Notes under the pieces: model-generated
Databases searched by the model: none
What the model was told of the DNA's origin: nothing
What the model saw: the letters and a program-made list of their open reading frames with translations, nothing else
Source of the DNA: Polyangia bacterium
GTDB taxonomy: Bacteria; Myxococcota_A; Polyangia; Fen-1088
NCBI GenBank assembly: GCA_036494575.1
Contig: DASXOE010000041.1
Location: 662-64,661, forward strand
Length of the DNA stretch: 64,000 nucleotides
Direction: 5' to 3'
Shown: positions 4,042 through 48,457 of the stretch, piece by piece
Position numbering within the stretch: position 1 is the stretch's first letter
Layout: each line of letters begins with the position of its first letter
Program-made: the position numbers and the translations under genes

Positions 4042-4042
4042 G

Positions 4043-6411: not shown

Positions 6412-6499
6412 GCGCAGGTTGAAGGTGGGAGCCGCGATCTTAAGTTGATTCGAACGTGAGTTGGGACGGCGGCGGTGTAGCTTGGGGCGGCGTTTGGTC

Positions 6500-6540: not shown

Positions 6541-6557
6541 GAGTTGGGTGACGTCGC

Positions 6558-19872: not shown

Positions 19873-21618
<1,746 letters not shown>

Positions 21619-32025: not shown

Positions 32026-33173
32026 CCCGTTCCGCCTGCCCGTCGGAGGACGAGGCGCTGCAGCCGCCGGGCGACGCCGAGCTGGACCGACACGTCGCGA
32101 CCTGCCCGCGGTGTCGCGCCACGCGGGACGAGCTCCTGCGGGCCATCGCGCTCGCGAAGGCGCTGCCGTCGAACGTGCCCGGGGCGGCGCGCCGCGAGGA
32201 GGTGCGCGCGAGCTTGCTCGCGACCGCGGCGGCCGAGCCCGCCGCGGTCGCGCCACGGACGTCGTGGGCGGTGGGAGGCATCGTCGCCGTCGCCGCGGTC
32301 ATCCTCGCGCTCGGGCTCGCGCGGGGCCGACGGCCGCCGGAGCCTGCGCGCTCGCACGTCGTCGTGCGGCCGGCGAGCGGGGCTCGCTACGCGATCGCAT
32401 CGCCACCGCCGCTCGAGACGATTCGACTCTGGGACGGGGCCATCGACCTCGACGTGCAGCCGCTGGGGCCGGGCGATCGCGTGCGCGTCGAGGTGGGCGA
32501 TGGCGAGATCGAGGTGCGCGGAACGCGCTTTCAGGTCGCGGCGGAGACAGACCGGCTCGTCGGGGTCGAGGTGACTCACGGTCGCGTCGAGGTCCGCCCG
32601 CGCGGCGCAGCGCTCGCGACGCTCGGGGCCGGCCAGAGGTGGCGCGCCGCACCGCGGGCGGCGCCGGAGAGGCCGTCGCCGCCCGCCGAGCTTCCCGTCG
32701 CCGAACCGCCGCGCGCCATCGCCCCGCGGCTCCGCCGGGTGGCGGCGCGGGCCGAGGCGGGCGTCGCTCGCGCCCTCGCGCCCACGCGACAGGAGGCCCT
32801 CTACGACGATGCCTGGGACGCATTGCGGGCCAGACGCTTCGATGAAGCGGCCACGGGGTTCGGTCGCGTCTTGGCGGAGTCGCCGTCCGGGCCGCTCGCC
32901 GACGAGGCCGGGTTCTGGCGGGCCATCGCGCTCGCGCGCGGGAAGAAGAACGCGGAAGCCGTCCCGGCGTTCCGGGCATTTCTCGCGACCTATCCGGCGT
33001 CGCCCCGGCGCGGCGAGGCGTCTGCGATCTTGGGCTGGCTGTTCGTCGATGCACACCGGATGGAGGAGGCGGCGGCGCTCTTTCGGACGGCCGCGCAGGA
33101 CCCGCACGAGAGCGTGCGCGCAAGCGCGCGCGAAGGCTTGGGCGCGTTCGCGCGATCCTCCGCGGGCCGCTGA
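32022..33173 (+). CDS. anti-sigma factor (zf-HC2, single TM, FecR-like domain, TPR-like C-terminus)
   Basis: GTG 32022 overlaps the sigma stop (GTGA). HVATCPRC (HxxxCxxC); TM segment WAVGGIVAVAAVILALGL; FecR-like segment EIEVRGTRFQVAAE...VEVTHGRVEV. Confidence 0.82.
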   Translation: MTRSACPSEDEALQPPGDAELDRHVATCPRCRATRDELLRAIALAKALPSNVPGAARREEVRASLLATAAAEPAAVAPRTSWAVGGIVAVAAVILALGLARGRRPPEPARSHVVVRPASGARYAIASPPPLETIRLWDGAIDLDVQPLGPGDRVRVEVGDGEIEVRGTRFQVAAETDRLVGVEVTHGRVEVRPRGAALATLGAGQRWRAAPRAAPERPSPPAELPVAEPPRAIAPRLRRVAARAEAGVARALAPTRQEALYDDAWDALRARRFDEAATGFGRVLAESPSGPLADEAGFWRAIALARGKKNAEAVPAFRAFLATYPASPRRGEASAILGWLFVDAHRMEEAAALFRTAAQDPHESVRASAREGLGAFARSSAGR

Positions 33174-33486
33174 TCGGGGAGCATGCGCCCTCCGTGCGTC
33201 GCCGACCGACGGACCGAGACCAAGTATAGGAAGTGCGCAGGCCTTAGAAAACGGCTCACGCGAACGTCGCGTAGCGTGCGTTTCATCCGGGAGGGCTGCG
33301 CCAAAATACCGCGAAGGGATCACCGACCACGGCAACGCGAGCGGACACGAGCGGATCGGTCTGCAAATTCGGCTTTCCGCGGACCGGAAACCTGTTGCCG
33401 GGTCTCTGCCACTGACGTAGGTTCGGCCAGAGATCCGGCCAAGCGACGCGTGTCTCGTCGCGCCGTTCGAGGAGGAGGTTCGCTCG

Positions 33487-33930
33487 ATGATCCGCTCGAT
33501 ACCCCGAGGTACCGCCCTGTTGATCGCGATCGTGTGTGCGTCGTTGACGTCGCCGCTGACGCGCCGTGCTCACGCGGCTGCGGCGCCCATCACCGTGACG
33601 GCCAAGCTCGTCGAGATTCCCTCGAGCTTACCGCCCGACGATCTTTACGATTACGCGTACGTCATGCGTTACGAAGTGATCGGTGGGCCGATGGACAAGC
33701 AACTCATCCTCGTGGCTCATTACAAACCGCGGTTGCCACGCGCGAAGATCAAGGACGGCATGAAGGCTCACGTCGGCGGCAAGCTCCGCAGCTTCACGAA
33801 GGGTGACGTTCACAAGCTCAAGCTCACGCCCGATCTGAAGGCGATCTGGAAGGGAGCCGTCATCGACGATTTCGCGGCCACCGATCGCAAGAGCGTTCGC
33901 TACTGGTGCTTGGAGGCGGATCCCGCGTGA
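33487..33930 (+). CDS. hypothetical small secreted protein
   Basis: 147 aa. gaggaggagg SD and signal peptide ...LIAIVCASLTSPLTRRAHA. Consistent high GC3. First gene of the 33.5-46 kb cluster. Confidence 0.7.
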   Translation: MIRSIPRGTALLIAIVCASLTSPLTRRAHAAAAPITVTAKLVEIPSSLPPDDLYDYAYVMRYEVIGGPMDKQLILVAHYKPRLPRAKIKDGMKAHVGGKLRSFTKGDVHKLKLTPDLKAIWKGAVIDDFAATDRKSVRYWCLEADPA

Positions 33931-34976
33931 GGAGCCTCCGGACGCTGCTGCTCGTCGTCGGCTGCGCCTCCATTCTTTTTTCCCTCGGCGCGAAGGAGGT
34001 CGCGCGTCGTCGTCTGTCGGCGCGCCTCGCGCGTCTCGAGCGCGCGCCCGGGGCGGCGTGCGTCGCGTTGGACGAGACGGCGCTGGCGCCGCGGGTCGCG
34101 CGCCTCGGGCCGCTCCTCGCGGGCTGGGAGACGATCGGCGGCTGCGGCGCGGGCGGCGGCACGAATGGCGCCGGAGTGCGCTGGATCGGCCGGAACACGA
34201 CGGGCGGGCTGTTCCAGGTCATCAGCCTCGACAACTACATCACGATTCCAAGGAGCGGCCCGACGGGCCCCGCTCTCGGGGGCTACAACGTCATCAGCAA
34301 CAACCAGATCACGCGCGACTTCACCGACAAGTGGAACGCCGGCGTGTCCATCCCGTACGCTTACAAGTGGTACCGCGATCCGTTCGGCACTGGCTGGGTG
34401 TCGAACGCGGGCCTGGCAGACATGAACGTTCTGGCGACCCGACGCCTGGGCACGGACAACTCGACCCTGCTCTCGGGAATCGTGACGCTGCCCACGGGGA
34501 CGTACCGGGCGGCGTATCGCGGCGTCGAGCTTTCTCCCGACGAGCAGCTCGGCTTCGGGCGCTTCACCGGGTCTCTGCTCCTCGATCACATCTTCGACGA
34601 GGATTGGGGCATCGTGCTCGTGGGCGGCGCCGCGAACTACCGCGGGGGCAGAAACTCCGCGGCCAATTACCGCGCGCCAGGCGCCACGCTCTACGGTTAC
34701 GCCGGGTACTTTCTCGGTCCCCTCGTGCCCGCGCTGGGCCTGAACCTCGTCGGCCAGACGCAACAGGATACACGCGGCGACTTCGGCGAGAATCTCAACA
34801 CGCCGGTGCTCGCGGGCGCCGCGCAGGCGTCGGTCGAATGGTCGACCCCGTACGTCGCGGTCCTCCTCGGCGCGTACATCCCGGTGGCGCTGCTCAACGA
34901 GAACTGGCACACGTCGGGTCACTTCGACCTGCAGGCGTGGGTGGTCGCGCTCGGCCTGTCGGTGTCTCCCTTTTGA
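33927..34976 (+). CDS. putative outer-membrane beta-barrel protein
   Basis: GTG 33927 overlaps the upstream stop (GTGA). Signal/lipobox-like LLLVVGCAS, alternating beta-strand pattern, and an aromatic C-terminus ...ALGLSVSPF. Confidence 0.6.
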   Translation: MRSLRTLLLVVGCASILFSLGAKEVARRRLSARLARLERAPGAACVALDETALAPRVARLGPLLAGWETIGGCGAGGGTNGAGVRWIGRNTTGGLFQVISLDNYITIPRSGPTGPALGGYNVISNNQITRDFTDKWNAGVSIPYAYKWYRDPFGTGWVSNAGLADMNVLATRRLGTDNSTLLSGIVTLPTGTYRAAYRGVELSPDEQLGFGRFTGSLLLDHIFDEDWGIVLVGGAANYRGGRNSAANYRAPGATLYGYAGYFLGPLVPALGLNLVGQTQQDTRGDFGENLNTPVLAGAAQASVEWSTPYVAVLLGAYIPVALLNENWHTSGHFDLQAWVVALGLSVSPF

Positions 34977-35131
34977 GTCATGACGCGGGCGCTCTTCAGA
35001 GACCGCAAACGGCCGGGCGCGCTCGGGGAGATCGTCCCTGTCGACGCCATGGAGACCCTTTTCGCGCGGCGGGGAGTCTCTGTAGGAGTGGACGCGCCCA
35101 AAGCAGAGTTGCACGCGCGATGGGAGGCCCG

Positions 35132-36328
35132 ATGACGCCGACGAAGAAGAAGACGACGATGAGGCAGGCTCGTGACACGTCGCGCGAAGTTCGATGGAAC
35201 CGAGTGGCCGCCGTCGCGGGCTGGCTCGTTGCGGCGAGCGGCCTCGCGTGCGGCGTCCACGGGGAAGCTGACACCGTCGGGAACGGCGCGGCGGGAAGCT
35301 CCCAGACGGGCGCGGCCGGAAACATCTCCGTGAGCGGAGCGAGCGGCAACGGCGCGGCGGGAAGCGTGGGGACCACGGGCGCGGCCGGCACGACGACGGG
35401 CGCCGCTGGCTCGACGACGGGCGCGGACGGCTCGACGACGGGCGCGGCCGGCTCGACCGGCGCCGCGGGCGCGTCTGGGACGGGCGCGGCCGGCGCGTCA
35501 GGCGCCGCGGGAATGGCGCCGCTCTCCGGCATCACCGTCAACATCGGCGGCACGAACGTCCCCAAGGAGAACGTCATCGCGTTCATCAACTTCGGGCACT
35601 CGAACATGGCCGGGCGCGGCGTCAGCCCCGCGGATCAACGAACGTTCTTTTTCGGTGCCCCGGACCCGCACGCGTGGATGTACCACAGCGGGAAGGGCTT
35701 CCAGCCGGCCGTCGAGCCCAACACCGCCGGTGACGGCGGCAACATGGTCAACGGAATGGTTTCGGGCGGTCTCAGCACGCCCCTCGTGAAGCAGGCCGCG
35801 GCCCTCGCGCCCGGCAAGTATTTCGTGACGATTCCCTTTGCCCAGGGCTCGGCCTATTGCTCGCAGTTTCTTCCCAATGCGCTCTACTACAACAAGCTCA
35901 TCACGGGCGCGAAGGAGCTCAAGGGCAAGGTGACGTTCGCAGGGATCGTCATCCTGCTGGGCATCACCGAGCGGCACGGCACGCAGGCCGACATCAACAA
36001 CTATCCCCAGTGCATAAGCACGCTCGTGACCGCCATTCGCAACGACCTCGGTGAGCCGAACCTGCCCCTGCTGCTCAACGACTACGAGATGGGCACGACC
36101 GGCCCCCTCGCGCCGACGAGCGCGTTCGCGCTGGCGATCCGGCCCAAGATCCTCATGGTGCCGAGCGTCGTCACGAACTCCTTCATCATCCCGACCGACA
36201 ATCCGATCGTCCAGATCGAGGACGACAAGTCGACGGACGACGATCACCACTTCAGCCTCGGCGGCCACGAGGAATACGCGCGTCGCCTGTTGCAGACGAT
36301 GAAGGACAAGGGCTTCTTCCCGTGGTAG
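35132..36328 (+). CDS. SASA/DUF303-family (sialate O-acetylesterase-like, CE6-like) carbohydrate esterase lipoprotein
   Basis: 3' part of ORF 34058..36328. gggagg SD; lipobox LVAASGLAC; ~90-aa (G-A-A-G-S/T)n linker. Then INFGHSNMAGRG (GxSNMxG), AGIVILLGITERHG and DDHHFSLGGHEEYARRL. Confidence 0.75.
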   Translation: MTPTKKKTTMRQARDTSREVRWNRVAAVAGWLVAASGLACGVHGEADTVGNGAAGSSQTGAAGNISVSGASGNGAAGSVGTTGAAGTTTGAAGSTTGADGSTTGAAGSTGAAGASGTGAAGASGAAGMAPLSGITVNIGGTNVPKENVIAFINFGHSNMAGRGVSPADQRTFFFGAPDPHAWMYHSGKGFQPAVEPNTAGDGGNMVNGMVSGGLSTPLVKQAAALAPGKYFVTIPFAQGSAYCSQFLPNALYYNKLITGAKELKGKVTFAGIVILLGITERHGTQADINNYPQCISTLVTAIRNDLGEPNLPLLLNDYEMGTTGPLAPTSAFALAIRPKILMVPSVVTNSFIIPTDNPIVQIEDDKSTDDDHHFSLGGHEEYARRLLQTMKDKGFFPW

Positions 36329-36357
36329 TTGGCGGGTAGCGCGGGGGACGCCGCACG

Positions 36358-37815
36358 ATGGTCTTTTCGAGCCAGATCTTTCTCTTTTACTTCCTGCCGG
36401 CGGTCCTCCTGCTCTATTACCTGGCGCCTTTCCGGGCGCGCACGGCCCTCATCGCGATCTCGAGCTACGTCTTCTACGGGTGGGCCAACCCGATCTGGGC
36501 CGTCATCATGTTCTTCGGCTCGAGCGTCGACTACATGTGCGGGCTCGCGCTCGTGAGGCTCTCGCGGCTCCCCGATCGCGACGGCCTGCCGCCCGTCATC
36601 GGCCCCGAGGTGCCGCGCACGCGCGCCATGAAGAGCGTGCTGGCGCTCTCGATCATCACCAACCTCGGCCTCCTCGCCGCCTTCAAGTACACCGGCTTCG
36701 TGGCCGAGAACATCAACGCGCTCGGCGGCGCCTTGGGCCTGGGCGGAGCACTGTTGCCCGTCTTCCACCTCGTCCTGCCCGTCGGCATCTCGTTCTATAC
36801 GTTCAAGGCCATGAGCTACGCGATCGACGTCTATCGGGGCGACGCGCGTCCCATGCGCCGCTTCACCGACTACATGTGCTTCGAGGCGTTCTTCCCCGAT
36901 CTCGTCGCGGGGCCCATCATCCGCTACGCCGCCATGGAAGAGCAGATGCGCCTGCGGCAGCACACCTGGGAGAAGTTCGCGCGCGGCGTGGCCTTCTTCG
37001 CGTTCGGCATGGCCAAGAAGATCCTCATCGCGAACCCCATGGGCCACATCGCCGACACGGCCTTCGGGGCGGGCGCGCTGCACGCGCACGACGCCTGGTT
37101 CGGCGTGTTCGGCTACGCTTTCCAGATCTACTTCGACTTCTCGGGCTACTCCGACATGGCCGTGGGCCTCGCGCTCATGATGGGCTTCGTCCTCATTCAG
37201 AACTTCGACTCGCCCTACAAGGCGGACAGCATCACCGACTTCTGGCGGCGCTGGCACATCAGCCTGTCGACGTGGCTGCGCGACTACCTCTACATCCCGC
37301 TCGGCGGCAACCGGAAGGGCGAGCGGCGCACGTACGTCAACCTCATGACCGTCATGCTGTTCGGGGGCCTCTGGCACGGCGCGAGCTGGAACTTCGTCCT
37401 TTGGGGCGCCATTCACGGCGGCATGCTGGCCTTCGAGCGCGCGCAGGGCAAAAAGGGCTTCTACGCGCGCCTGCCGCACCCCGTGCGGGTGGCGCTGACG
37501 TTCGTGATCGTCTGCCTGTCGTGGGTCTTCTTCCGGGCGAAGACGCTGCCGCAGGCGCTCGCTTACCTCGGCTCGATGTTCGGCGTCGCGCACGCCGGGC
37601 CGTCCTCCGACGTCGTGGCCGGCGCGATCTACACGCCGTATCATGCCGCGATGTTCGTGGTCGCGGCGCTGACGGTCTGGGCCTTGCCCAACACGTGGGC
37701 CTTCACCAATCGCCTGTCGCTCGGTCGCGCCGCCTCGGGCATGGCGCTGCTCGCGCTCTCGGTCCTCATGATGTGGACGCAGACGGTGAATCCGTTCCTC
37801 TACTTCCAGTTCTGA
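36358..37815 (+). CDS. MBOAT-family membrane O-acyltransferase (AlgI/PatA/DltB-like)
   Basis: 485 aa. MVFSSQIFLFYFLP, FDFSGYSDMA, FWRRWHISLSTWLRDYLYIPLGGNR, GGLWHGASWNFVLWGAIHG (catalytic His region). Confidence 0.93.
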   Translation: MVFSSQIFLFYFLPAVLLLYYLAPFRARTALIAISSYVFYGWANPIWAVIMFFGSSVDYMCGLALVRLSRLPDRDGLPPVIGPEVPRTRAMKSVLALSIITNLGLLAAFKYTGFVAENINALGGALGLGGALLPVFHLVLPVGISFYTFKAMSYAIDVYRGDARPMRRFTDYMCFEAFFPDLVAGPIIRYAAMEEQMRLRQHTWEKFARGVAFFAFGMAKKILIANPMGHIADTAFGAGALHAHDAWFGVFGYAFQIYFDFSGYSDMAVGLALMMGFVLIQNFDSPYKADSITDFWRRWHISLSTWLRDYLYIPLGGNRKGERRTYVNLMTVMLFGGLWHGASWNFVLWGAIHGGMLAFERAQGKKGFYARLPHPVRVALTFVIVCLSWVFFRAKTLPQALAYLGSMFGVAHAGPSSDVVAGAIYTPYHAAMFVVAALTVWALPNTWAFTNRLSLGRAASGMALLALSVLMMWTQTVNPFLYFQF

Positions 37816-37817
37816 AG

Positions 37818-39179
37818 ATGACGGTTCCAGATCACGCCCTTCCCCTCGACGCGCGCGCCGTCGGCGCTGGCGCGGAGGCTCGCAAGGAAGCAGCGCCCCG
37901 GCGCGGGGGGCCGACTGATCCGTCGCACGACGAGCGGCTGCGGCGGGGCATCATCGACACCGACCTGCCGCTCGGCCGCGCCCGCTGGATGACGGCGCTC
38001 TTCATCGTCGGAATCTTCGCCATCCCCGTCTCTCAGGAGGTCATGCAACGCGCTCGCGGCGAGGACTCGGTGCTGCCCGAGCTCTTCCGCCACCGACCGA
38101 CGCGCGAGAGCCTGCGCCAATTCGAGGACGATCTCGAGCAGGCCTCCTACTTCAAAGACTACGTCCAGCCGCGCATGCAGGCGCTCCTGACGCGCTTCGG
38201 GCGGGTCGGCAACAAGAAGGCGGTCGTCGGTCGGGAAGGTTGGCTCTACTACAAGCCCGGCATCGCCTACGTCGGCGGTCCCGGGTTCCTCGCGGCCGAC
38301 ACGATCGACGGGCGTGTGCGCGCCGCGCGTGACGGCGGCGGACCCGACGTCGGCGCCGATCCCCGCCCGGCGATCCTGTCGTTCCAGCGGGCGCTCGCGG
38401 CGCGCGGGATCGCGCTCGTGCTGTTCCCGGTCCCCGACAAGTCGATGCTGGAGCCGCGCCAGCTGCACGGCCGGGCGTCGCCCGCCGAGGTGGTTCCCGT
38501 TCCGCGCAATCCGGACTGGGGACGTTTCGTCGAGGAGATGACCACCGCGGGCGTCACCGTCTTCGACCCGGCGCCGTCGGCTCTCGGCGCGGGTGAGCCG
38601 CCGCATTACCTCGTCCAGGACACGCACTGGACGCCGGCCTGGATGGAGGAGGTCGCCGGGAACCTCGCGGCCGTCGTCGCGCGCGTCGGTCGCCTTCCCG
38701 CTCTGTCCTCGCGGCCCGTCTGGCGCGAGGTCGAGCGGCCGGTCGCGCGCCTCGGCGACGTCGTCGACATGTTGAAGCTGCCCGAGGGGCAGACCATCTT
38801 CGCGCCGCAATCGGTGACGACGCGCGCGATCGTCGTCGGTGCGCAAGCGGCGGGCGGGAGCGCGGACGCCGCCGACTGGGAGCCAGAGGAGACGGCCGAC
38901 GTGCTGCTCCTCGGCGACAGCTTCACGAACGTGTTCTCGCTCGAGGCGATGGGGTGGGGGACCGCGGCCGGCCTCGCGCCGCACCTGGCCTTCGCGCTCG
39001 GGCGCCCCGTCGACGTCATCGCTCAGAACGATTCGGGCGCGTTCGCGACCCGCCAGGCGCTGGCGCGCGAGCTCGGCGGCGGCCAGGATCGGCTGCGTGG
39101 CAAGCGCGTCGTCGTCTGGGAGCTCGCGAGCCGCGAGCTCGCCGTGGGCGACTGGAAGGCCGTCGAATGGCCGAAATGA
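37818..39179 (+). CDS. AlgJ/AlgX/PatB-like SGNH-type O-acetyltransferase, membrane-anchored (copy 1)
   Basis: 3' part of ORF 36480..39179. TM anchor WMTALFIVGIFAIPV. FPVPDKSMLEP, YLVQDTHWTPAW (D-x-H-W) and LLLGDSFTN. Confidence 0.78.
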   Translation: MTVPDHALPLDARAVGAGAEARKEAAPRRGGPTDPSHDERLRRGIIDTDLPLGRARWMTALFIVGIFAIPVSQEVMQRARGEDSVLPELFRHRPTRESLRQFEDDLEQASYFKDYVQPRMQALLTRFGRVGNKKAVVGREGWLYYKPGIAYVGGPGFLAADTIDGRVRAARDGGGPDVGADPRPAILSFQRALAARGIALVLFPVPDKSMLEPRQLHGRASPAEVVPVPRNPDWGRFVEEMTTAGVTVFDPAPSALGAGEPPHYLVQDTHWTPAWMEEVAGNLAAVVARVGRLPALSSRPVWREVERPVARLGDVVDMLKLPEGQTIFAPQSVTTRAIVVGAQAAGGSADAADWEPEETADVLLLGDSFTNVFSLEAMGWGTAAGLAPHLAFALGRPVDVIAQNDSGAFATRQALARELGGGQDRLRGKRVVVWELASRELAVGDWKAVEWPK

Positions 39180-40165
39180 ACGGGGGGGCCGCGACCTCCG
39201 GCCGCACGGCGTTCGTCACGGGCGCCGCGGGCGTCATGGGCGTCCGCCTCGTGCGCGGGCTCGTCGAAGCGGGATGGCGCGTGCGCGCGCTCGTGCTGCC
39301 GGGGGACCCGCTGCGCGCGCGCCTCGCCGGGCTCGGCTGCGACATTCGCGAGGGCGACGTGGCGGACGCGGCCTCTCTGGAGGGCGCCTGCGCGGGGGTC
39401 GACACCGTCTATCACCTCGCGGCCGTGATCCTCTCGCACGATCCGTTGGTCTTCGCGCGGGTCAACCGCGAGGGCACGGCGCACGTCGTGGCCGAGGCGG
39501 CGCGCGCCGGCGTGCGTCACTTCATCTATGTGTCCTCGGCGTCGGTGACGTATCCGAAGCGGACCCCTTACGCCGACTCGAAGCTCGCGGCCGAGGAACT
39601 CGTCAAGGCCGAGGGTTCGTTCGCCCACACGATCGTGCGGCCCACGCTGGTCTACGACGTGGGCGGCGGACAGGAGCTGCTCCTGTTCCTCGACTATTTG
39701 CGGCGCTTCCCCGTGGTCCCGTTCATCGGCGCCGGCCGGGCGCTCAAGCGCCCCGTGTGGGCGGGCGACGTCATCGACGGGCTGCTTCGCCTCGCCGGCA
39801 ACGCCGTCGCGCACGGCAAGACCTTCAACTTCAGCGGTGGCGAGGCCATCGCGATCGCCGACTTCGGCCGCCTCCTGCTTCGTCATCACGGCGAGCGCCG
39901 TCTCTTCGTGCCGGTCCCCGTGCCGATCTGCCGCGCGGTCGCCTTCGTGCTCGCGCGCCTCATGAAGCGGCCGCCGCTCACGGCCAGTGCGATCGCCGGG
40001 ATCGTGAACGACGCCGATCTCGATCCGGCCCTCGCGACGCGCGAGCTCGGCTATCGGGCCATGCCCGTCAGCGAGGGGTTGAGCCTTTGCTTCCCCGTCA
40101 AGTCGTCTCCGACGCTCCGCGAGCGCTCCGCGCTCGCCTCGAAACCCGAAGGGAATTCATCATGA
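39176..40165 (+). CDS. NAD-dependent epimerase/dehydratase (extended SDR)
   Basis: AFVTGAAGVMG Rossmann motif and the YADSK catalytic YxxxK. ATG 39176 overlaps the upstream stop (an alternative ATG lies at 39167). Confidence 0.85.
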   Translation: MNGGAATSGRTAFVTGAAGVMGVRLVRGLVEAGWRVRALVLPGDPLRARLAGLGCDIREGDVADAASLEGACAGVDTVYHLAAVILSHDPLVFARVNREGTAHVVAEAARAGVRHFIYVSSASVTYPKRTPYADSKLAAEELVKAEGSFAHTIVRPTLVYDVGGGQELLLFLDYLRRFPVVPFIGAGRALKRPVWAGDVIDGLLRLAGNAVAHGKTFNFSGGEAIAIADFGRLLLRHHGERRLFVPVPVPICRAVAFVLARLMKRPPLTASAIAGIVNDADLDPALATRELGYRAMPVSEGLSLCFPVKSSPTLRERSALASKPEGNSS

Positions 40166-41349
40166 CCTCGCGCAAGACGTCGTTCGTTGCTCCGCTCATG
40201 GTTTCTTCTGCGCTGTTCGCGTCCCCCTTGCTGTTGGCGCTCTCGATGTGCGCCTGCGCCACGCTGTCGGGGGCGCCCCCGACGGGGACCGAGGAGAAGC
40301 CCACCGACGAGGACGCCGCCGCGAGCAAGCGCATCGGCGAGAAGGCGGGAGGCCTCATCGTGTGGTCGAGCTCTCGCAACGGCAACCACGATCTCTTCAC
40401 GATGAAGACCGACGGGTCGGACGTGAAGTCCATCACGAAGGGCGACGAGGTCGATTGGTTCCCGCGCTTCTCGCCGGACGGCTCGAGGATCCTGTTCTGC
40501 CGCAGCAAGAAGGGTTGGGTCAGCGAGAAGGACGCCAACATCAGCTCGAAGTGGGATCTCTGGACGGTGCACCCCGACGGCAGCGAGCCCACGAAGGTCG
40601 TCGAGAACGCGACCTGGGGAAGCTGGACCAGCGCCGACCACATCGTCTTCGTGCGCGACGGCAAGATCCTGCGCACCAAGCTCGGCTCGGACGGCGCCGG
40701 AAAGGAGCACTTGCTGCTCGACGGAAACAAGGCCACGTCGCTCGACGGGGCCGAGCTGCAGCAGCCTGAGCTCTCCCCCGACGGGCGCTACATCGCCATC
40801 ACGCTGCGCGGCTCCCGGCGCGAGACGGGCATCTGGAGCCTCGACGACAAGACGTGGACGAAGACCGGTCTCGGCTGCCAGATCAACTGGGCGCCCGATG
40901 GCAAGACGATCTACTGGATGAATCCCACGGGCAACGGCGGCAGCGAGGTGTTCCGCATGCCCATCGTCGACGGCGCGCCTCCCGCGAAGGCCCCGAGCGA
41001 CGACGAGATTCGATTCATGGACATGCCGGGGCGGCGCTCGCACGAATACTTTCCGCAGCTGTCGCGCGACGGCAAGTGGCTCGTCTGGGGCATCACGCAG
41101 CGCGGCCACGATCACGACATCGCCGACTACGAGATCTACCTGTGGGAGGTGGGCACGGCGCCCGACACGGGCGCGGCGCGCCTGACGTTCCACTCGGCCA
41201 ACGATCGCTGGCCGGACATCTTCATCCCGAGCGCGGCGGGCGCCGGGGCACCGGCCGCCGACGGCGAGGGCGGCGAGGCCGCCGACAGCACCGGCGAGAA
41301 GGCCGACGCCGACAAGGCTCCGTCGCACGCCAAGAGGAAACACAAGTGA
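40162..41349 (+). CDS. TolB-like beta-propeller (PD40/WD40-like repeat) lipoprotein
   Basis: Lipobox LALSMCAC. Repeated SPDG motifs (FSPDGSRILF, LSPDGRYIAI, WAPDGKTIYW, LSRDGKWLVW). Lys-rich tail. ATGA overlap with the upstream gene. Confidence 0.78.
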   Translation: MTSRKTSFVAPLMVSSALFASPLLLALSMCACATLSGAPPTGTEEKPTDEDAAASKRIGEKAGGLIVWSSSRNGNHDLFTMKTDGSDVKSITKGDEVDWFPRFSPDGSRILFCRSKKGWVSEKDANISSKWDLWTVHPDGSEPTKVVENATWGSWTSADHIVFVRDGKILRTKLGSDGAGKEHLLLDGNKATSLDGAELQQPELSPDGRYIAITLRGSRRETGIWSLDDKTWTKTGLGCQINWAPDGKTIYWMNPTGNGGSEVFRMPIVDGAPPAKAPSDDEIRFMDMPGRRSHEYFPQLSRDGKWLVWGITQRGHDHDIADYEIYLWEVGTAPDTGAARLTFHSANDRWPDIFIPSAAGAGAPAADGEGGEAADSTGEKADADKAPSHAKRKHK

Positions 41350-42440
41350 AGCCGGAGCGCGTCGCCGTCCTCGGCGCGGGCGGCTTCATCGGGTCGCACC
41401 TCGTGCCGGCGCTGCTGGCCGAGCGCGAGGAAGTCGAGGTTGTGGCCGTCGACCTGACGTTCGAGAAGCTCGTCTCGACGGATGCGCGCGTGCGCTTCGT
41501 GACGGCGTCCGTCGATCGGCCTGGGTTGCTCGACGAGGTGACGGCGCGCTGCTCGACGGTGGTGTCCCTCACGGCGCTGTGCAACCCGTCGCTCTACAAC
41601 ACGCGGCCGCTCGACGTCATCGACGCCAACTACACCGATCTCGTGCCGCTCGTGAAGCTGTGCGCGGCGCGCGGGGTTCGCCTCGTTCATTTCTCGACGT
41701 GCGAGGTCTACGGACGGCGAGCGCTCGACGCCGGAGGCCACGGGACGCCCACGATGAACGAGGAGACGACGGGGATGTTCCTCGGTCCCGTCGACCGCGA
41801 GCGTTGGACCTACGCCTGCGCCAAGCAGCTCCTCGAGCGCGTGATCTGGGCGCACGGTCTGCACGGCGCGCTGGACTTCACGATCGTCCGGCCCTTCAAC
41901 GTCATCGGGCCGCGCATGGACTTCGTGCCCGGCGTCGACGGCGAGGGCGTGCCGCGCGTGCTGGCGTCGTTCATGAGCGCCCTGCTGCGCGACGAAGAGC
42001 TTCCGCTCGTCGCCGGCGGCGCGCAGCGGCGATCGTTCATCTCGGTCGAGGACTTCGTCGAGGCCGTCGTCCGGATCGTCGAGCGGCCCACGGCCTGCCG
42101 GCGCCAGATCCTGAATCTCGGCAACCCGGCGAACGAGGTCAGCGTGCGCGCGCTCGCGGAGGTGCTCGCGCGCGCCTACGCGGCCCGCGTGCCGGGCGCG
42201 GCCCGCGCGCGGTTCCGCGACGTCACGGCGGAAGAGCTCTACGGCGCCGGCTACGACGACTCCGAGCAGCGCGTCCCCGACATCGGCAAGGCCCGGCGCC
42301 TGCTGAGCTGGCAACCCGAGACGACCCTCGAGCGGATGCTCCCCGGAATCGTCGACGACTACGTGGCGCGCTACGGTCCGGCGCTGGCCAGCGAGAGGCA
42401 CGCGGTCGCCGCGCGCGCGGCGCGGTCGAAGGCGCCGTGA
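41346..42440 (+). CDS. ArnA C-terminal-domain-like UDP-glucuronate decarboxylase / UDP-4-keto-pentose synthase (extended SDR)
   Basis: VAVLGAGGFIGSHL, WTYACAKQLLERVIWAHG, FTIVRPFNVIGPRMD, RRSFISVEDFVEAVVRIVE, ILNLGNPANEVSV. These closely parallel the ArnA decarboxylase-domain motifs. GTGA overlap. Confidence 0.78.
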   Translation: MKPERVAVLGAGGFIGSHLVPALLAEREEVEVVAVDLTFEKLVSTDARVRFVTASVDRPGLLDEVTARCSTVVSLTALCNPSLYNTRPLDVIDANYTDLVPLVKLCAARGVRLVHFSTCEVYGRRALDAGGHGTPTMNEETTGMFLGPVDRERWTYACAKQLLERVIWAHGLHGALDFTIVRPFNVIGPRMDFVPGVDGEGVPRVLASFMSALLRDEELPLVAGGAQRRSFISVEDFVEAVVRIVERPTACRRQILNLGNPANEVSVRALAEVLARAYAARVPGAARARFRDVTAEELYGAGYDDSEQRVPDIGKARRLLSWQPETTLERMLPGIVDDYVARYGPALASERHAVAARAARSKAP

Positions 42441-43159
42441 GGGTCGCCGTCGTCATCCCGGCGTACGACGCCTCCAGACACGTCGCCGCGGTCATCGAGC
42501 GGGTCCTCGCGGCTCCCGTGCCGGACCTCGACCGCGTCATCGTCGTCAACGACGGCAGCCGCGACGACACGGCGCGGATCGTCGCGGAGCTGCCGCGTGG
42601 CCGCTGCCCCGTCGAGCTCGTCGACCGCCCGCGCAACGGCGGCTACGGCGCAGCCATGAAAGACGGGCTCGCGCGCGCCGCCGAGACCGATCCCGACGTC
42701 GTCGCCTGCGTTCACGCCGACGGACAGTACAGCCCCGAGGCTCTGCCGTCGCTGCTCGACGCAATGCAAACCGGTGGCCTCGACCTGCTCCAGGGCTCGC
42801 GCATCGCCTCGGGCTCCGCCCTGTCGGGCGGGATGCCCATCTACAAGTACGTCGCCAACGCCGCGCTCAACGTTCTCGAAAACCGGGCGCTCGGCCTGCG
42901 CATGACGGACTATCACAGCGGCTATCTCCTCTACGGCCGCCGCCTGCGCGAGAGCGTTCCGTTCGCGCGCCTCTCCGACAGCTTCGACTTCGACCTCGAG
43001 GTCATCGCCTCGGCGCGCGCGTGCGGTCTCGCCGTCGCCGAGGCGCCCGTGCCCACGCGCTACGCCGACGAGATCTCGCACCTGCGACCGGTCCCGTACG
43101 GCTTGCGCGTGCTGCGCGTGCTGTGGCGCTTCCGCCGGGGGCACTATGCTCCTTCCTAG
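42437..43159 (+). CDS. family 2 glycosyltransferase, polyprenyl-phosphate sugar transferase type (ArnC/DPM1-like), no C-terminal TM
   Basis: VAVVIPAYDASRHV, VIVVNDGSRDDT, NGGYGAAMKDG, HADGQYSPE, DYHSGY. GTGA overlap. Confidence 0.83.
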   Translation: MRVAVVIPAYDASRHVAAVIERVLAAPVPDLDRVIVVNDGSRDDTARIVAELPRGRCPVELVDRPRNGGYGAAMKDGLARAAETDPDVVACVHADGQYSPEALPSLLDAMQTGGLDLLQGSRIASGSALSGGMPIYKYVANAALNVLENRALGLRMTDYHSGYLLYGRRLRESVPFARLSDSFDFDLEVIASARACGLAVAEAPVPTRYADEISHLRPVPYGLRVLRVLWRFRRGHYAPS

Positions 43160-45221
43160 TCGCGCGGCCGCCACCCGCGCGCGCGCCGCAGGCGTCGTTG
43201 GCGTCGCGCTGGCGGCGCTCGCGCTCGCCTGTCACCCGGGCCTCGGGCCCGCGCCCTGGTCGGCGACCAAGGGCTCGGTCCCCGCCGTCCACGCCCAGGT
43301 GCGGACGCTCAACGACGGGTACAGCCGCACGCGCTCCACCGCGCTCGTGCGCGAGATCGACGAGCCGACGCGCGCCAACCTCGACTACGCCGCCTACCAC
43401 GCCAACTTCATGATCGCCGATCCCGAGCCCGCGGGCGCGCGCTCCGCGGGCGGCGTGGCCGTGGCGACGGCGCCGTTTCACGGCCTCGTCGAGGCGGCGA
43501 CGCTCACGGGCGACATCGGCCGGACGCCGCTCACGCCGGAGGAGCGCGCGCACCCCTTGGCGTTCGCGCCGGTCGTCGAATACCTGTCGGCGCACAAGGT
43601 CGCGGGCGCGTCCGACCTCGAGGACGTCGGCGGCGCCGTGCACGGCGAGAGCTGGGGTCTTCCGGGTGGCCCGCAGATCGTGCCGCAGTTCGCGAGCGAG
43701 CTCTTCGTTCATGCGGGCCCGCACGCGGGGTCGGCGCCGGAGCTCTGGGTCAAGGTGGAGTTCGAGCCCTGGTTCGAGGCCCTCGGCGCGTTGCCCGATC
43801 AGGACGGCGACGGCTTTCCGGAGATCTACGGGCGCGTGGCGCCCGCGCACGTGAGCGCCTCCGTCGTCGATACGATCTTGGGCGACTATTCGCGAAAAGT
43901 GCTGTCGCGCGCCGAGATCAAGACCTGGGCCAATCAGCTCTCCGGCTACTGGTACCCGTCGTACAACACCGACCTCATGGTGGCGGGCCCGACCTGGCCG
44001 AACGACGCCACCGAGGCCGACGTCAAGACCGAGCTCGGCGGCCACACGTTCGAGGCGCCGACGATCGTCATGCGCGGAAAGCCCCAGGGCAAAGCCACCT
44101 ACGAGGTTTTCATCGTCAAGGGACAAGGAGCATCGGCGACGCCGGGCGCGGCGCGCGCGGCGACGGTTCCATCCCTGCCCAAGACGCAGCCGAGCCCCCA
44201 CCCGGAGGTCGTCGTCGAGGCCATTCGCAAGGAGCTCGCGACGACGGGCGGCGGCTCCTGGGAGAAATGGGCGGCCTCGGTGGCGCCCTGGGGCGAGATC
44301 GTTCGGCGCGTGCTCGGCGCGACGCCGGCGACCGTGAAAGGGATCGCTGGGACCGACGGGTTCCTCTTCTTCCGGAACAGCCTCGAATACGCCGTGGGCG
44401 GCGATCTCGAGGCTCAGCCCAAGGGCAAGAATCCGTTGCCCGTCATCGTCGAGTTCAAAAAGGAGCTCGAGGCGCGCGGCGTGGACTTCCTCTTCGTGCC
44501 CGTGCCCACGAAGGCAGAGATCTTCCCCGAGGAGATCGACGGCCGCGCGAAGGGTTTCGCGGGTCGGGTGGTCAACCCCTACGAACGCAAGCTGCTCTAC
44601 GACCTCGGCCTGGCCGGCGTCGAGACGGTCGATCTGCTGCCCGCGTTCCTCGCGGCGCGCGAGCCGGACAAGGTCGAGCGCGAGCTGATCTTCCAGCACC
44701 AGGACACGCACTGGACGGATCGCGGGCTGCGGCTCGCCGCCGAGCTCATCGCCGAACGCGTCAAGAAGTACCCCTGGTACGGCGCCGCCGCGCGCAACGG
44801 ACAGAAGCTGCACAGCAAGCAGACGACGTTCAGCCGCCACGGAGACCTGCATTCGCGCCTGCCCGTCGCCGAGCGCCGCAGGTACAAGCCCGAGACGCTC
44901 GTCGCGCATCAGGTGCTGCACGCCGACGGGACGCCGTACGACGACGACGACACGAGCCCGATCGTCGTCCTGGGCGACAGCTTCACGGGAGTCTACGAGC
45001 TCATGGACGCCGAGCACGCTGGCGTCTCCGCGCACCTCGCGCTCGACGCCGGCGTGCCCGTCGATCTCGTCATGAGCTACGGCGGCGGGCCGAACGTCCG
45101 GCAGAAGCTCATGCGTCGCGGCGCCGATGCCCTCGGCAGCAAGAAGCTCGTCGTCTGGATCATGACGGCCCGCGATCTCTACAACTACTGGGAGGAATGG
45201 GAGCCGCTGAAGGTCAAGTGA
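43146..45221 (+). CDS. lipoprotein with an unrecognised ~400-aa N-terminal region plus a C-terminal AlgJ/AlgX-like SGNH domain (copy 2)
   Basis: 691 aa. Lipobox ALALAC. C-terminal FVPVPTKAEIFPE, FQHQDTHWTDRG and VVLGDSFTG parallel copy 1. I recognise no motif in the N-terminal half. Confidence 0.72.
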   Translation: MLLPSRAAATRARAAGVVGVALAALALACHPGLGPAPWSATKGSVPAVHAQVRTLNDGYSRTRSTALVREIDEPTRANLDYAAYHANFMIADPEPAGARSAGGVAVATAPFHGLVEAATLTGDIGRTPLTPEERAHPLAFAPVVEYLSAHKVAGASDLEDVGGAVHGESWGLPGGPQIVPQFASELFVHAGPHAGSAPELWVKVEFEPWFEALGALPDQDGDGFPEIYGRVAPAHVSASVVDTILGDYSRKVLSRAEIKTWANQLSGYWYPSYNTDLMVAGPTWPNDATEADVKTELGGHTFEAPTIVMRGKPQGKATYEVFIVKGQGASATPGAARAATVPSLPKTQPSPHPEVVVEAIRKELATTGGGSWEKWAASVAPWGEIVRRVLGATPATVKGIAGTDGFLFFRNSLEYAVGGDLEAQPKGKNPLPVIVEFKKELEARGVDFLFVPVPTKAEIFPEEIDGRAKGFAGRVVNPYERKLLYDLGLAGVETVDLLPAFLAAREPDKVERELIFQHQDTHWTDRGLRLAAELIAERVKKYPWYGAAARNGQKLHSKQTTFSRHGDLHSRLPVAERRRYKPETLVAHQVLHADGTPYDDDDTSPIVVLGDSFTGVYELMDAEHAGVSAHLALDAGVPVDLVMSYGGGPNVRQKLMRRGADALGSKKLVVWIMTARDLYNYWEEWEPLKVK

Positions 45222-46045
45222 GGCGGGCCCTGCTCGTGCTGCTGCTGCTCGCGGCCTGCGAGAGGCGCCGCGGGGGCCCCGCCGTCGAGGAGGCGCCGTT
45301 CGCGCGGCGCTTGCTGACGATCTCGCGCGGCCTCGAGGTTGGCCCGACCGCCGATCCCGCCGCAGCCGCGCGCGACCTCGAGCGGCTCGCGGCCGCGGCG
45401 CGCGCCGCGCTCACTCGGCGCGGGCCGGCGTCGGCCGTCGAGGTCCTGAACCGCCTCGTCTTCGAGACAGAAGGCTTCAGTCGCGAGGTCGACGACACCT
45501 CGCTCGCGTATGTCTTGCTTCCCTCCGTCCTGCTCAACCACCGGGGCAGCTGCGTGGGCCTCGGCACGCTCTATCTTGCCCTCGGCAGCCTCCTCGAGAT
45601 TCCGATGCGTGGCGTCGTCGTCCCGGGGCACTTCTTCGTGCGCGCCTGGGTCGATGGCCGCTGGCGTCCGGTCGAGCTGCTCCGCCGCGGCGACGAGGAG
45701 AGCTCTGACTGGTATCGCGCCCGCTGGCCCTTGCCGCGGACCACGGCTCCCGTCTACGACCGTCCGCTCACCGAAGACGAGGCCGCTGGCGTCGTGGAGT
45801 ACGACATCGGGAACGACCTGCGGCGGCGCGGCAGGATCCCCGAGGCGCGCCGTGCCCTCGAGCGCGCCGTGGCGCACTTTCCGGCGCTCCCGGAGGCGCA
45901 GGCGAGCCTGGGCGCCGTCCTTCAGCTCGCGGGCGCGCTCGACGCCGCGCGAGGAGCCTACGAGGCCGCCGCGCGGCTCGAACCCGGCTTGCCCGGCCTT
46001 GGCCAAAATCTCCGCCTGCTCGAGGACGAGCGGCGGGCCCCATGA
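45218..46045 (+). CDS. transglutaminase-like/TPR-containing lipoprotein
   Basis: GTGA overlap. Lipobox LLLLAAC. NHRGSCVGLGTLYLALG...VVPGHFFVR (Cys...His as in the transglutaminase-like fold), then TPR-like ...EARRALERAVAHFPALPEAQASLGAVLQLAGALDAARGAYEAAARLEP. Confidence 0.65.
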   Translation: MRRALLVLLLLAACERRRGGPAVEEAPFARRLLTISRGLEVGPTADPAAAARDLERLAAAARAALTRRGPASAVEVLNRLVFETEGFSREVDDTSLAYVLLPSVLLNHRGSCVGLGTLYLALGSLLEIPMRGVVVPGHFFVRAWVDGRWRPVELLRRGDEESSDWYRARWPLPRTTAPVYDRPLTEDEAAGVVEYDIGNDLRRRGRIPEARRALERAVAHFPALPEAQASLGAVLQLAGALDAARGAYEAAARLEPGLPGLGQNLRLLEDERRAP

Positions 46046-46071: not shown

Positions 46072-47172
46072 TCAGCTCTCGGCGGCGCGCTGGACCGTAA
46101 CCGCGAAGACGCACCCCTTGCCGGGGCGGTTGTTCACCGAGAGCCGGCCCCCGTGCGCCTCGATCGCCTCGCGCGTCACCGACAGCCCGAGGCCGAGACC
46201 GCGTCGGTCCTTTCCGCGCTGAACGAACGGCACGAACAGCTCCTCCTCTCGCCCCGGCGGGAGACCTCCGCACTCGTCCTCGACCTCGATGACGCTCGTG
46301 TCGCCCTCGGCGCGGGCGCGCATGACGACGTGGCCGCCGTTGCGCGTGAACTTGAGCGCGTTCTGGACGAGGTTGCTGAGCGCCGAGGTGAGGAGACGCT
46401 CGTCGGCGTCGAGCTCGAGCGAATCGTCGACCTCTACCGAGAGGGTGACGCCGCGCTCGAGGACGGCGGAGTCCTCGAGCTCGTGCAGCAGCGCGCTCGC
46501 GCGGATGCGTCGCGGCTCGACGGCAACGCCCGCCTCGAGCTGAACCGTCAGCAGGGCCTGGCCGATGATCCCGTCGAGGCGCGCCAGGCCGCGCGCGAGC
46601 ACGTCCCCCGCGCGGCCGTTGATGCAGCCCTCGTCCCGCTTGAGGATCGAGAACGCCATCCGCGCGCTCGCGAGAGCGTTGCGCAGCTCGTGCGCGAGCA
46701 GCCCCACGCGCTCGGTCGTCGCATGCTGGAGCTTGGCGCGCGCGTCTTTCCAGTACTCCTCGATGGCTGTCCCGATCGCCTTGTCGAGGCACAGGTTGAA
46801 AATTTGGTACTCGCGCGCGTCGAAACAGAGGCCCTCGGGCCCGGCGAGCTCGCCCACTGAGTCCGAGATCGCGCCGAAGTCGCGGCTGATGATCTGGATC
46901 GTGTAGCCGAGCTCCTGGCGCCGCCGACCGTGGCGCGCCGCCGTCTCGCTCTTGCCGCCGGGCAGCGGCGACGTCTCCGGTAAGCCCTGCTCTCGGCCGA
47001 GCGCACGCGCGATTTCGTCGATGAGGGCGGCCAGGTCGGTCTCGAGGTTCGTCCCCGGCTGGTCGGGCCAATCCGCCCGGATCTTGCGCACGCAGAGATC
47101 TCGGATCTCGTCACGGCGATTCGCGATGAATTCCCGCAGCGAGGCCACGTTCAATATCGTGGGCACCCTCAC
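46072..47172 (-). CDS. cytoplasmic sensor histidine kinase with RsbRD_N-like N-terminal sensor domain (HK-1)
   Basis: 3' third of ORF 46072..48762. H-box LLAHELRNALASA. LSNLVQNALKFT, DECGGLPPG and GLGLGLSVTREAIEAHGG. No TM segment. Start approximate (GTG 47172). Confidence 0.85.
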   Translation of the reverse strand: MRVPTILNVASLREFIANRRDEIRDLCVRKIRADWPDQPGTNLETDLAALIDEIARALGREQGLPETSPLPGGKSETAARHGRRRQELGYTIQIISRDFGAISDSVGELAGPEGLCFDAREYQIFNLCLDKAIGTAIEEYWKDARAKLQHATTERVGLLAHELRNALASARMAFSILKRDEGCINGRAGDVLARGLARLDGIIGQALLTVQLEAGVAVEPRRIRASALLHELEDSAVLERGVTLSVEVDDSLELDADERLLTSALSNLVQNALKFTRNGGHVVMRARAEGDTSVIEVEDECGGLPPGREEELFVPFVQRGKDRRGLGLGLSVTREAIEAHGGRLSVNNRPGKGCVFAVTVQRAAES

Positions 47173-47292
47173 GTCGGTCACAAGACGTTGGCCTTCGGAT
47201 ACGGACGACACACGACCGTCTCTCGCGCCCGCCGGGGGGCGCGCTTGACGCCTCGCTCGGCCGCCACCATTTTGCCAAGGGGTCGCCGTCCC

Positions 47293-48447: not shown

Positions 48448-48457
48448 GAGGCGATCC

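Follow-up and report, generated by a model that had tools for sequence, protein, structure and literature searches.

Does the eleven-gene locus described here form a single system, and if it does, which sugar does it activate, how does that sugar reach the cell envelope, and what has an O-acetylation relay to do with it? The locus lies in a 64,000-nucleotide stretch of DNA from a Polyangia bacterium (positions 662 to 64,661 of contig DASXOE010000041.1, assembly GCA_036494575.1; the whole stretch is referred to as the window), which was ~70% G+C and harbored the plus-strand genes G1 to G11 at positions 33487 to 46045. The answer argued below, to which a probability of about 0.5 is assigned, is that these genes make up a module for extracytoplasmic glycan decoration in Polyangia: a pentose (apiose) would be linked to a lipid and then transferred to an acceptor that is also O-acetylated.

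Gene organization of the locus

Raw lists of open reading frames (ORFs) were noisy at this G+C content, and genes were called from the codon-position GC profile together with a start-codon scan. The calls agreed with the eleven same-strand genes of an earlier reading of this DNA (the original prediction) and were as follows:

G1, 33487–33930, plus strand: 147-aa secreted protein with a signal peptide
G2, 33927–34976, plus strand: 349-aa predicted outer-membrane beta-barrel protein
G3, 35120–36328, plus strand: SASA/CE6-type SGNH esterase lipoprotein with a Gly/Ala/Ser/Thr-rich linker
G4, 36358–37815, plus strand: membrane-bound O-acyltransferase (MBOAT; AlgI/DltB/PatA type), an integral-membrane acyl translocase
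G5, 37818–39179, plus strand: AlgJ-like periplasmic SGNH protein of the AlgX family, anchored by a single transmembrane (TM) segment
G6, 39176–40165, plus strand: short-chain dehydrogenase/reductase (SDR) of extended type, NDUFA9/HpnA/3-beta-HSD-like
G7, 40162–41349, plus strand: beta-propeller lipoprotein of PD40/Tricorn_N type
G8, 41346–42440, plus strand: SDR of the UDP-apiose/UDP-xylose synthase (UAXS; bacterial form bUAS) family
G9, 42437–43159, plus strand: 240-aa family 2 glycosyltransferase (GT2), PpgS/DPMS/ArnC/GtrB-like, predicted polyprenyl-phosphate pentosyltransferase
G10, 43146–45221, plus strand: 691-aa lipoprotein with a C-terminal SGNH domain of AlgJ/AlgX/PatB1 fold
G11, 45218–46045, plus strand: lipoprotein with a transglutaminase-like core (SirB1-type, PF13369) and tetratricopeptide repeats (TPRs)

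Seven junctions were overlapping, each exactly as originally described: six by 4 bp (GTGA at 33927, 41346, 42437, and 45218; ATGA at 39176 and 40162) and one, G9/G10, by 14 bp (43146–43159). The remaining gaps measured 143 bp (G2/G3), 29 bp (G3/G4), and 2 bp (G4/G5). A strong ribosome-binding site, GGAGGAGG, was located 5′ of G1; the start of G3 was ambiguous (35120, 35132, or 35159), and the start-codon scan gave an alternative ATG start for G11 at 45197. Lipoprotein-type signal peptides were recognized by inspection in G2, G3, G7, G10, and G11. Pfam searches confirmed every named-family domain call (SASA, MBOAT, ALGX, Epimerase, PD40, Glycos_transf_2, and Transglut_core2), and with them the earlier designations of an MBOAT, two AlgJ/AlgX-like proteins and a SASA esterase lipoprotein (each with its catalytic motifs), an ArnC/DPM1-like GT2, a second extended SDR, a TolB-like propeller lipoprotein, and a transglutaminase/TPR lipoprotein; the designation of G8 was revised in part (see below).

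Conservation of the gene set and a twelfth gene

Homologues of G8 and G10 were common in soil and sediment metagenomes, and module neighborhoods were mapped by tblastn in three contigs and 79 genome loci. G3 to G11 were complete in 34 of the 81 fetched loci, nearly all of them from Polyangia/Myxococcota, and most Polyangia genomes kept the colinear order G3–G4–G5–G6–G7–G8–G9–G10–G11, among them five Sorangium strains. One of these five is Sorangium cellulosum So0157-2, whose G8 orthologue lies within 1919445–1941484 of NC_021658.1. Module proteins displayed identities from ~30% to 85% in related genomes, and the nearest genome, a Polyangia metagenome-assembled genome (MAG; L004), displayed 81–98%. 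The 4-bp G8/G9 and 14-bp G9/G10 overlaps recurred in other genomes, while the positions of G1 and G2 varied among the loci. A deeper clade had the order G6–G7–G2–G8–G9–G10–G11, with the MBOAT, AlgX-like, and G1 genes a few kilobases off; in the shuffled or split units, all parts still lay within ~10 kb. Both the gene set and its overlapping junctions thus recurred, in line with the single start/stop-coupled unit originally proposed and with the conservation of its genes together in related genomes, and the eleven genes are a genuine operon kept across soil Polyangia, culturable Sorangium included.

When all predicted proteins of 80 loci were clustered, exactly 12 families were found to co-occur, namely, G1 to G11 plus one more; no flippase (GtrA, SMR, or MATE), synthase, Wzx/Wzy, or ABC exporter was conserved with the module across these loci. 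At one locus (L001:14657–20067) the module was followed by genes for an Asp/Arg hydroxylase, an alginate lyase, and a PL14 polysaccharide lyase, an arrangement not conserved elsewhere. The additional family was as follows:

Twelfth gene, L016:185–2170, L020:411–2399, and 29 other loci: publicly annotated as "tetratricopeptide repeat protein"

This gene, usually located between G2 and G3, encoded a protein of ~660 aa with ~11 TM helices, an invariant DGD..WHLAAGR loop following TM1, and C-terminal TPRs. It was present in 30 of the 34 loci with complete G3–G11; two of the other four had too short a flank, and two were the nearest relatives of the window. The natural unit therefore comprises twelve genes. 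Searches of Pfam, NCBIfam, and PDB profiles matched the TPRs alone, no Pfam or NCBIfam model covering the membrane domain. Because the sequence libraries gave only TPRs, the fold was assigned from an AlphaFold2 (AF2) model (predicted local distance difference test score [pLDDT], 87; predicted template modeling score [pTM], 0.85) and a Foldseek search, in which the top 17 matches were all GT-C proteins (STT3, AglB, DPY19, and PglB) and AftA came at rank 20. The modeled structure unambiguously marks the twelfth protein as a predicted GT-C-fold glycosyltransferase with TPRs. The ancestral module holds this gene, which in the organism of the window is presumably located elsewhere in the genome or has been lost.

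The predicted sugar-activating enzyme G8

G8 was an Epimerase-type extended SDR by Pfam, with an intact YxxxK motif and GAGGFIGSH as its GxxGxxG motif. Its best solved relative was the plant UAXS of PDB 6h0n (E value, 2.3e-88; 300 bits; 45% identity), while the scores were 196 bits for PbgP3, 187 bits for ArnA, and 74 bits for human UDP-xylose synthase (UXS); the NCBIfam model U4kpxs gave 257 bits, under its cutoff of 294. Validated bacterial UDP-apiose synthases (UAS) share 43–49% identity with the plant enzyme (PMC5607165), and G8 homologues carried the Joint Genome Institute annotation "UDP-apiose/xylose synthase." T118, Y156, and K160 of G8 aligned to catalytic T139, Y185, and K189 (Arabidopsis thaliana numbering), all 10 of the 10 UAXS signature residues (Table 3 of PMC12820599) were retained, and C79 and C119 occupied the positions of UAXS Cys100 and Cys140. 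Cys100 is key to opening of the sugar ring and is replaced by Ala in ArnA and UXS, while Cys140 is replaced by Ser in both; the ArnA equivalents are Ala393 and Ser433 (PMC12820599). Among 65 module homologues of G8, the Cys100 column was invariant, and the Cys140 column held Cys in 42 (the clade of the window being of this type), Ala in 22 (Sorangium-type loci), and Ser in 1; to judge from the alignment, with Ala instead of Cys at this position the balance of apiose and xylose products could differ from one lineage to another. By its scores and signature residues, G8 is a member of the UAXS family, not of ArnA or UXS type, with apiose or xylose as a more probable sugar product than a 4-keto-pentose.

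G8 had originally been named an ArnA-decarboxylase-domain-like SDR. The UDP-pentose-forming SDR in that name stood, while the analogy to Arn did not. In an Arn-type modification of lipid A or lipopolysaccharide (LPS), G8 would act as the ArnA C-terminal domain, giving UDP-4-keto-pentose, and G9 as ArnC. The pathway predicted for the module does resemble the Arn pathway in that an SDR oxidatively decarboxylates UDP-glucuronate before a GT2 transfers the product to undecaprenyl phosphate; moreover, the C-terminal domains of ArnA were clearly homologous to G8 (E value, ~1e-54), and ArnC was a detectable relative of G9. However, G8 is of UAXS type, scoring 300 bits with UAXS but 187 bits with ArnA and having Cys where ArnA has Ala393 and Ser433 (PMC12820599); ArnB, a formyltransferase domain, ArnD, ArnE/F, and ArnT were found neither in the window nor in any related locus; and the co-conserved GT-C protein resembled STT3, DPY19, and PglB, not ArnT. 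An Arn-type reading is largely refuted by the signature residues, by how the scores compare, and by the lack of partner genes, and it was rejected as hardly credible.

The glycosyltransferase G9 and the second SDR G6

G9 matched PF00535 (Glycos_transf_2; E value, 1e-24), and PF13641 was also assigned. Its best NCBIfam model was PpgS (polyprenyl-phospho-GalNAc synthase; 226 positions), which aligned end to end and was followed by AglJ, dolichyl-phosphate hexose transferase, and ArnC, all of these matches being under the family cutoffs. The best solved relatives, in single-sequence as well as family-profile searches, were DPMS (5mlz), ArnC, and GtrB. This kinship supports, short of proof, a polyprenyl-phosphate acceptor for G9.

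G6 was also an Epimerase-type extended SDR by Pfam; it displayed TGxxGxxG and YxxxK motifs and a hydrophobic C-terminal helix, and it was nearer to the NDUFA9, HpnA, OleD, and 3-beta-HSD SDRs than to nucleotide-sugar epimerases of GalE type. In Citrobacter, a cytoplasmic SDR epimerizes undecaprenyl-phosphate-ribofuranose to undecaprenyl-phosphate-xylofuranose (PMC11127046), a precedent that by analogy may serve as a lead, not a test, for the role of G6.

A single 4-kb metagenome contig (L082:1018–3750) encoded a 910-aa fusion of a G9-type GT2 and a G10-type AlgX-like protein (P0189). It was set aside as evidence, this single contig representing either a probable frameshift across the 14-bp overlap or a rare fusion.

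The predicted O-acetylation and esterase proteins

G4, the most conserved protein of the module (76–84% identity in most related loci and 43–52% in divergent ones), matched Pfam MBOAT (PF03062; E value, 3.4e-31) and scored 163 bits, under cutoff, against the DltB model; it contained the histidine motif WHISL and multiple TM segments. G5 and G10 both matched ALGX (PF16822; E values, 7.9e-24 and 1.2e-26, respectively) and carried the DTHW and GDSF motifs; G5 had a TM anchor at residues 58–76, as in AlgJ, and lipobox Cys29 of G10 was conserved in at least 90% of homologues. In the AF2 model of G10 (pLDDT, 80), the C-terminal domain superposed on AlgJ, AlgX, the AlgKX complex, a DHHW protein, and Bacillus cereus PatB1 (Foldseek: 4o8v at an E value of 2.5e-14, then 4knc, 7ula, and 5v8d). 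The N-terminal ~350 aa of G10 had no Pfam, PDB, or Foldseek structural match; this domain defined a small family, with 187 representative clusters in a set of 1.84 billion proteins, most of them sharing the ~680-aa architecture. G3, conserved in 34 loci, matched SASA (PF03629; E value, 1.8e-14), and its catalytic blocks GHSNM and DDDHH were intact on inspection.

These proteins could belong to a function of their own. In such an arrangement, two independent functions with separate targets would stand side by side, (i) pentosylation by G6 to G9 plus the GT-C protein and (ii) (de)acetylation by G3 to G5 and G10 in the manner of O-acetyl-peptidoglycan (OAP) clusters, possibly acting on peptidoglycan. 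OAP clusters combine an MBOAT, an SGNH transferase, and an esterase (PatA/PatB/Ape), and the same logic is found here; PatB1 of B. cereus is a structural neighbor of G10, and in deeper branches (L038, L040, and L065) the operon of MBOAT, AlgX-like, and G1 genes was separate from G6–G11. However, even the split sets stayed within ~10 kb, G10 always stood in a G8–G9–G10–G11 run with the conserved 14-bp overlap with the GT2 gene, and the neighborhoods shared no other gene family, all of which makes a mere juxtaposition of two functions unlikely.

In a Fibrobacteres MAG (contig JAEUSG010000177.1; L078:9923–20590), a two-domain G10 homologue (38% identity) was followed by a G7-type PD40 propeller (50% identity), with a sigma-54 activator upstream; the pair was flanked by three secreted proteins with type IX secretion system (T9SS) tails, two of them containing SASA domains, and the locus contained no UAS, GT2, or MBOAT gene. 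G10 plus G7 (plus SASA) looks like a portable sub-module.

If the module served to catabolize or remodel acetylated polysaccharides of foreign origin (plant xylan or apiogalacturonan, for example), the SGNH and SASA proteins would have the role of esterases. The SASA/CE6-type esterase of the module, the Fibrobacteres G10–G7 pair next to T9SS-secreted SASA esterases, and the alginate-lyase and PL14 genes near the module on one contig are all compatible with such a role. Nevertheless, UAXS, GT2, MBOAT, and GT-C proteins serve biosynthesis, conservation with the module did not extend to any glycoside hydrolase, lyase, or sugar transporter, and the lyase neighbors were confined to that one locus; a catabolic function is considered very unlikely.

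The predicted envelope-facing proteins

G1 displayed the conserved motifs VTAKLVEIP...DDLYDYAYVMRY...VAHYKPR in addition to its signal peptide; it had no match in Pfam, NCBIfam, or PDB profile searches and was found in 21 related loci at 54–80% identity, often after G11 or before the MBOAT gene. G2, likewise without a Pfam, NCBIfam, or PDB profile match, accompanied the module in 34 loci; it contained an N-terminal anchor/lipobox VVGC and a conserved GGCGAGG...KWIGR, its alignment displayed an alternating barrel-type pattern, and its C-terminus ...LGLSVSPF was outer-membrane-protein-like, features from which it is predicted to be an outer-membrane beta-barrel. G7 matched PD40 (PF07676; E value, 4.6e-16), with Tricorn_N seen in homologues, and had the conserved motif HEYFP...HDHD..DYE. 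G11 matched Transglut_core2 and TPR, with the core Cys and His conserved. Since the HDHD of G7 and the transglutaminase-core Cys and His of G11 are conserved, these two proteins may be enzymes rather than scaffolds.

Proposed pathway

On the gene structure, family memberships, folds of G10 and the GT-C protein, and co-conservation set out above, a pathway can be outlined, for which we infer the identity of the sugar, the lipid carrier, the flow of acetyl groups, the acceptor, and any protein complex. From UDP-glucuronate, G8 would make UDP-apiose and, as a by-product, UDP-xylose, and the translationally coupled G9 would transfer the pentose to polyprenyl phosphate. UDP-apiose is reportedly labile, and the conserved 4-bp coupling of G8 and G9 fits its immediate capture. 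G6, as a membrane-peripheral SDR, may epimerize or reduce the lipid-linked or nucleotide-linked sugar. The lipid-linked pentose would then be flipped to the periplasm, the module itself encoding no flippase, and the GT-C-fold TPR transferase would pass it to an envelope acceptor. In the acetyl relay, the MBOAT G4 would bring acetyl groups through the inner membrane, the anchored AlgJ-like G5 would receive them, and the AlgX-like lipoprotein G10 would take them over from G5; this relay would O-acetylate the same acceptor as receives the pentose, and the SASA esterase G3 would strip acetyl groups as an editor. G2, G11, G7, and G1 would form an outer-membrane-proximal part, loosely like AlgK–AlgX–AlgE.

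A more specific version of this pathway is put forward tentatively. It would be a lipid-linked apiofuranose pathway of Polyangia, in which polyprenyl-phosphate-apiose is the donor, a new TPR-bearing GT-C protein apiosylates a polymer or protein of the envelope (or even polymerizes apiose) in the periplasm, acetylation of the product is AlgI/J/X-like, and G10 contributes a novel substrate-binding domain.

Several points weigh against a lipid-linked apiose pathway: (i) enzyme activity, lipid intermediate, and glycan are all predicted chemistry; (ii) UAXS enzymes yield UDP-xylose too, and the product ratio may vary by lineage; (iii) the GT-C gene is absent from the window, where tblastn returned nothing at E values of ≤1 and only two noise alignments (E values, 2.5 and 9.3), and the pathway may here be incomplete or differently wired; (iv) no flippase (GtrA, SMR, or MATE) was found in the module of any genome among the 80 loci; (v) G9 has no TM segment, and the first aspartate of its DxD motif is replaced (HADGQ), its lipid acceptor being putative; and (vi) G10 and G7 occur in the Fibrobacteres MAG beside secreted SASA proteins and apart from biosynthetic genes, and G10 might be an esterase rather than a transferase.

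Points iii to v also speak for a Leloir-type reaction, in which G9 glycosylates a membrane lipid or cytoplasmic acceptor directly with UDP-apiose or UDP-xylose and the product is exported and O-acetylated. Because LPS is reportedly missing from Sorangium, candidate acceptor lipids include ceramide, diacylglycerol, and ornithine lipid; according to the title of Keck et al. 2011, as cited in PMC11324152, S. cellulosum So ce56 has no LPS, and its outer-membrane lipids are unusual. The resemblance of G6 to lipid-acting SDRs (HpnA, OleD, and 3-beta-HSD models) points in the same direction. However, polyprenyl-phosphate glycosyltransferases account for all of G9's nearest relatives, named or solved; PpgS, whose 226-position model spans G9 from end to end, is likewise a short GT2; and 30 of the 34 complete modules include a gene of GT-C fold, a class of enzymes with lipid-phosphate donors. 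A direct transfer is accordingly regarded as doubtful, and the lipid-linked pathway is retained as the preferred reading.

Comparison with known systems

The predicted pathway was compared with three-component systems (GtrA/GtrB/Gtr*, PpgS/Rv3632/Rv3779, and the pentofuranose system ORF15/ORF14/ORF12 of Citrobacter youngae with its auxiliary SDR ORF13 [PMC11127046]), in which a polyprenyl-phosphate-monosaccharide is made in the cytoplasm and a GT-C protein carries out the transfer outside. The module shares with them a GT2 resembling PpgS/GtrB-type synthases and a GT-C-fold protein, the product of the twelfth gene; as in Citrobacter, where an extra cytoplasmic SDR can diversify the pentofuranose, it also has an additional SDR, G6. 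It differs from them in five respects: (i) its donor would come from a UDP-apiose/xylose synthase, not from phosphoribosyl pyrophosphate (PRPP) or a common UDP-hexose; (ii) it has no flippase gene; (iii) in this window it has no GT-C gene; (iv) its GT-C protein bears TPRs and has a membrane domain outside Pfam and NCBIfam models; and (v) it comes combined with five envelope proteins and a relay for O-acetylation.

With the alginate system AlgI–AlgJ–AlgF–AlgX and AlgK/AlgE (related to WssFGHI of cellulose and PatA/PatB/Ape of peptidoglycan), the module shares an MBOAT and two AlgX-family SGNH proteins, together with a lipoprotein bearing TPRs and a protein predicted to be an outer-membrane barrel, and as in OAP clusters there is an esterase partner. 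Unlike the alginate system, it had no AlgF, no polymerase or copolymerase (Alg8/Alg44, BcsA), and no epimerase or lyase, the domains of AlgF and Alg8/Alg44 being absent from the window and the related loci alike; the CBM (carbohydrate-binding module) of AlgX is replaced in G10 by the N-terminal domain without a structural match, the esterase is of SASA type, and the TPR protein carries a transglutaminase-like core.

The apiose operon XpUAS–XpApiT–XpXylT of Xanthomonas pisi (PMC5607165, PMC6193724) likewise has a UAXS-family synthase gene start/stop-overlapped with a downstream glycosyltransferase gene, and its sugar product, as expected here, is likely in the insoluble cell fraction. Its transferases are soluble Leloir enzymes, the GT90 protein ApiT and the pfam13704 GT2 XylT, whereas those of the module are a DPMS/PpgS-like GT2 of PF00535 and a GT-C protein; no GT90-type domain was found in the module, the neighbor of G8 being the PF00535/PF13641 protein G9. 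Compared to the X. pisi operon, the module has ten more genes and recurs in dozens of genomes.

The original view that the locus is no alginate, cellulose, Pel, or Arn cluster was borne out, as was its central proposal, since pentose activation with a polyprenyl-phosphate-type GT2 and the MBOAT/AlgX O-acetyl relay were co-conserved in one unit. No description of such a combination was found in the literature searched, again as originally supposed, and that literature contained only incidental mentions of apiose together with Sorangium or myxobacteria. Apiose was long held to be plant-only and, to our knowledge, has been shown in only two bacterial species. A 2017 paper, which counted only 8 bacterial UAS genes, saw no operon conservation (PMC5607165), and neither an apiose glycan of bacteria nor its function was known (PMC6193724).

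A UAXS-family gene in a conserved envelope operon of 11 to 12 genes, recurring in dozens of Polyangia genomes, contradicts the view that there is no conserved operon. The module is a candidate for the first bacterial apiose-glycan pathway, well supported and widely conserved, its chemistry entirely predicted; if the reading is true, a genetic system for an apiose-containing envelope glycan would be defined in bacteria for the first time, along with the first polyprenyl-phosphate-apiose donor. It suggests a new route to a lipid-linked pentofuranose donor, via UDP-apiose and not PRPP, a new GT-C family with TPRs, and a new architecture of AlgX-type acetyltransferases, all in organisms with an outer membrane already recognized as unusual. 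The Sorangium carriers are genetically tractable and industrially important, which makes bacterial use of apiose directly testable.

Surroundings of the module

The region upstream of G1 contained the following features:

Intergenic region 5′ of G1, 33174–33486, plus strand: 313 bp, the sole long gap on the strand and the likely promoter region of the operon
Same-strand trio upstream, 30524–33173, plus strand: U1, an extracytoplasmic function (ECF) sigma factor, and a zf-HC2/FecR/TPR anti-sigma factor, the factors assigned by Pfam
U1, starting at 30524, plus strand: secreted 303-aa protein
ECF sigma factor, 31432–32025, plus strand: assigned by Pfam
Anti-sigma factor, 32022–33173, plus strand: zf-HC2/FecR/TPR, assigned by Pfam

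Scans for sigma-70 promoters and terminators gave nothing above background, the sigma-70 scan not covering ECF-type promoters. The trio genes were coupled by 4-bp overlaps at 31432 and 32022. Mapping and clustering of the related loci did not find the trio beside the module in other genomes; the sigma/anti-sigma pair, not being conserved with the module, was therefore not counted as part of it, and the trio may be a lineage-specific candidate regulator of the operon.

Across the whole 64-kb window, no ArnB, GT-C protein (ArnT included), flippase, Wzx/Wzy, synthase, or ABC exporter was found, so that the absences originally noted for the locus (ArnB, ArnT/GT-C, Wzx/Wzy, synthase, and ABC exporter) hold for its surroundings as well. 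The other content of the window included genes for glycogen/trehalose metabolism, phosphoglucose isomerase (PGI), transaldolase, a TonB receptor, two-component systems, a radical SAM protein, and Ku.

Downstream, a convergent gene began 26 bp past G11. An 896-aa minus-strand ORF (46072–48762) overlapped a plus-strand histidine kinase gene (47188–48447); codon-position GC suggested a real kinase gene and, on the minus strand, coding only from 46072 to ~47100 (345 aa, matching no family). A minus-strand run of glycogen/trehalose type (1192–13425) encoded CBM48 and alpha-amylase family proteins, a GH15 glucoamylase/trehalase-like protein, and a GDE-type debranching enzyme, and near it lay the genes for PGI (19873–21531) and transaldolase (18897–19838).

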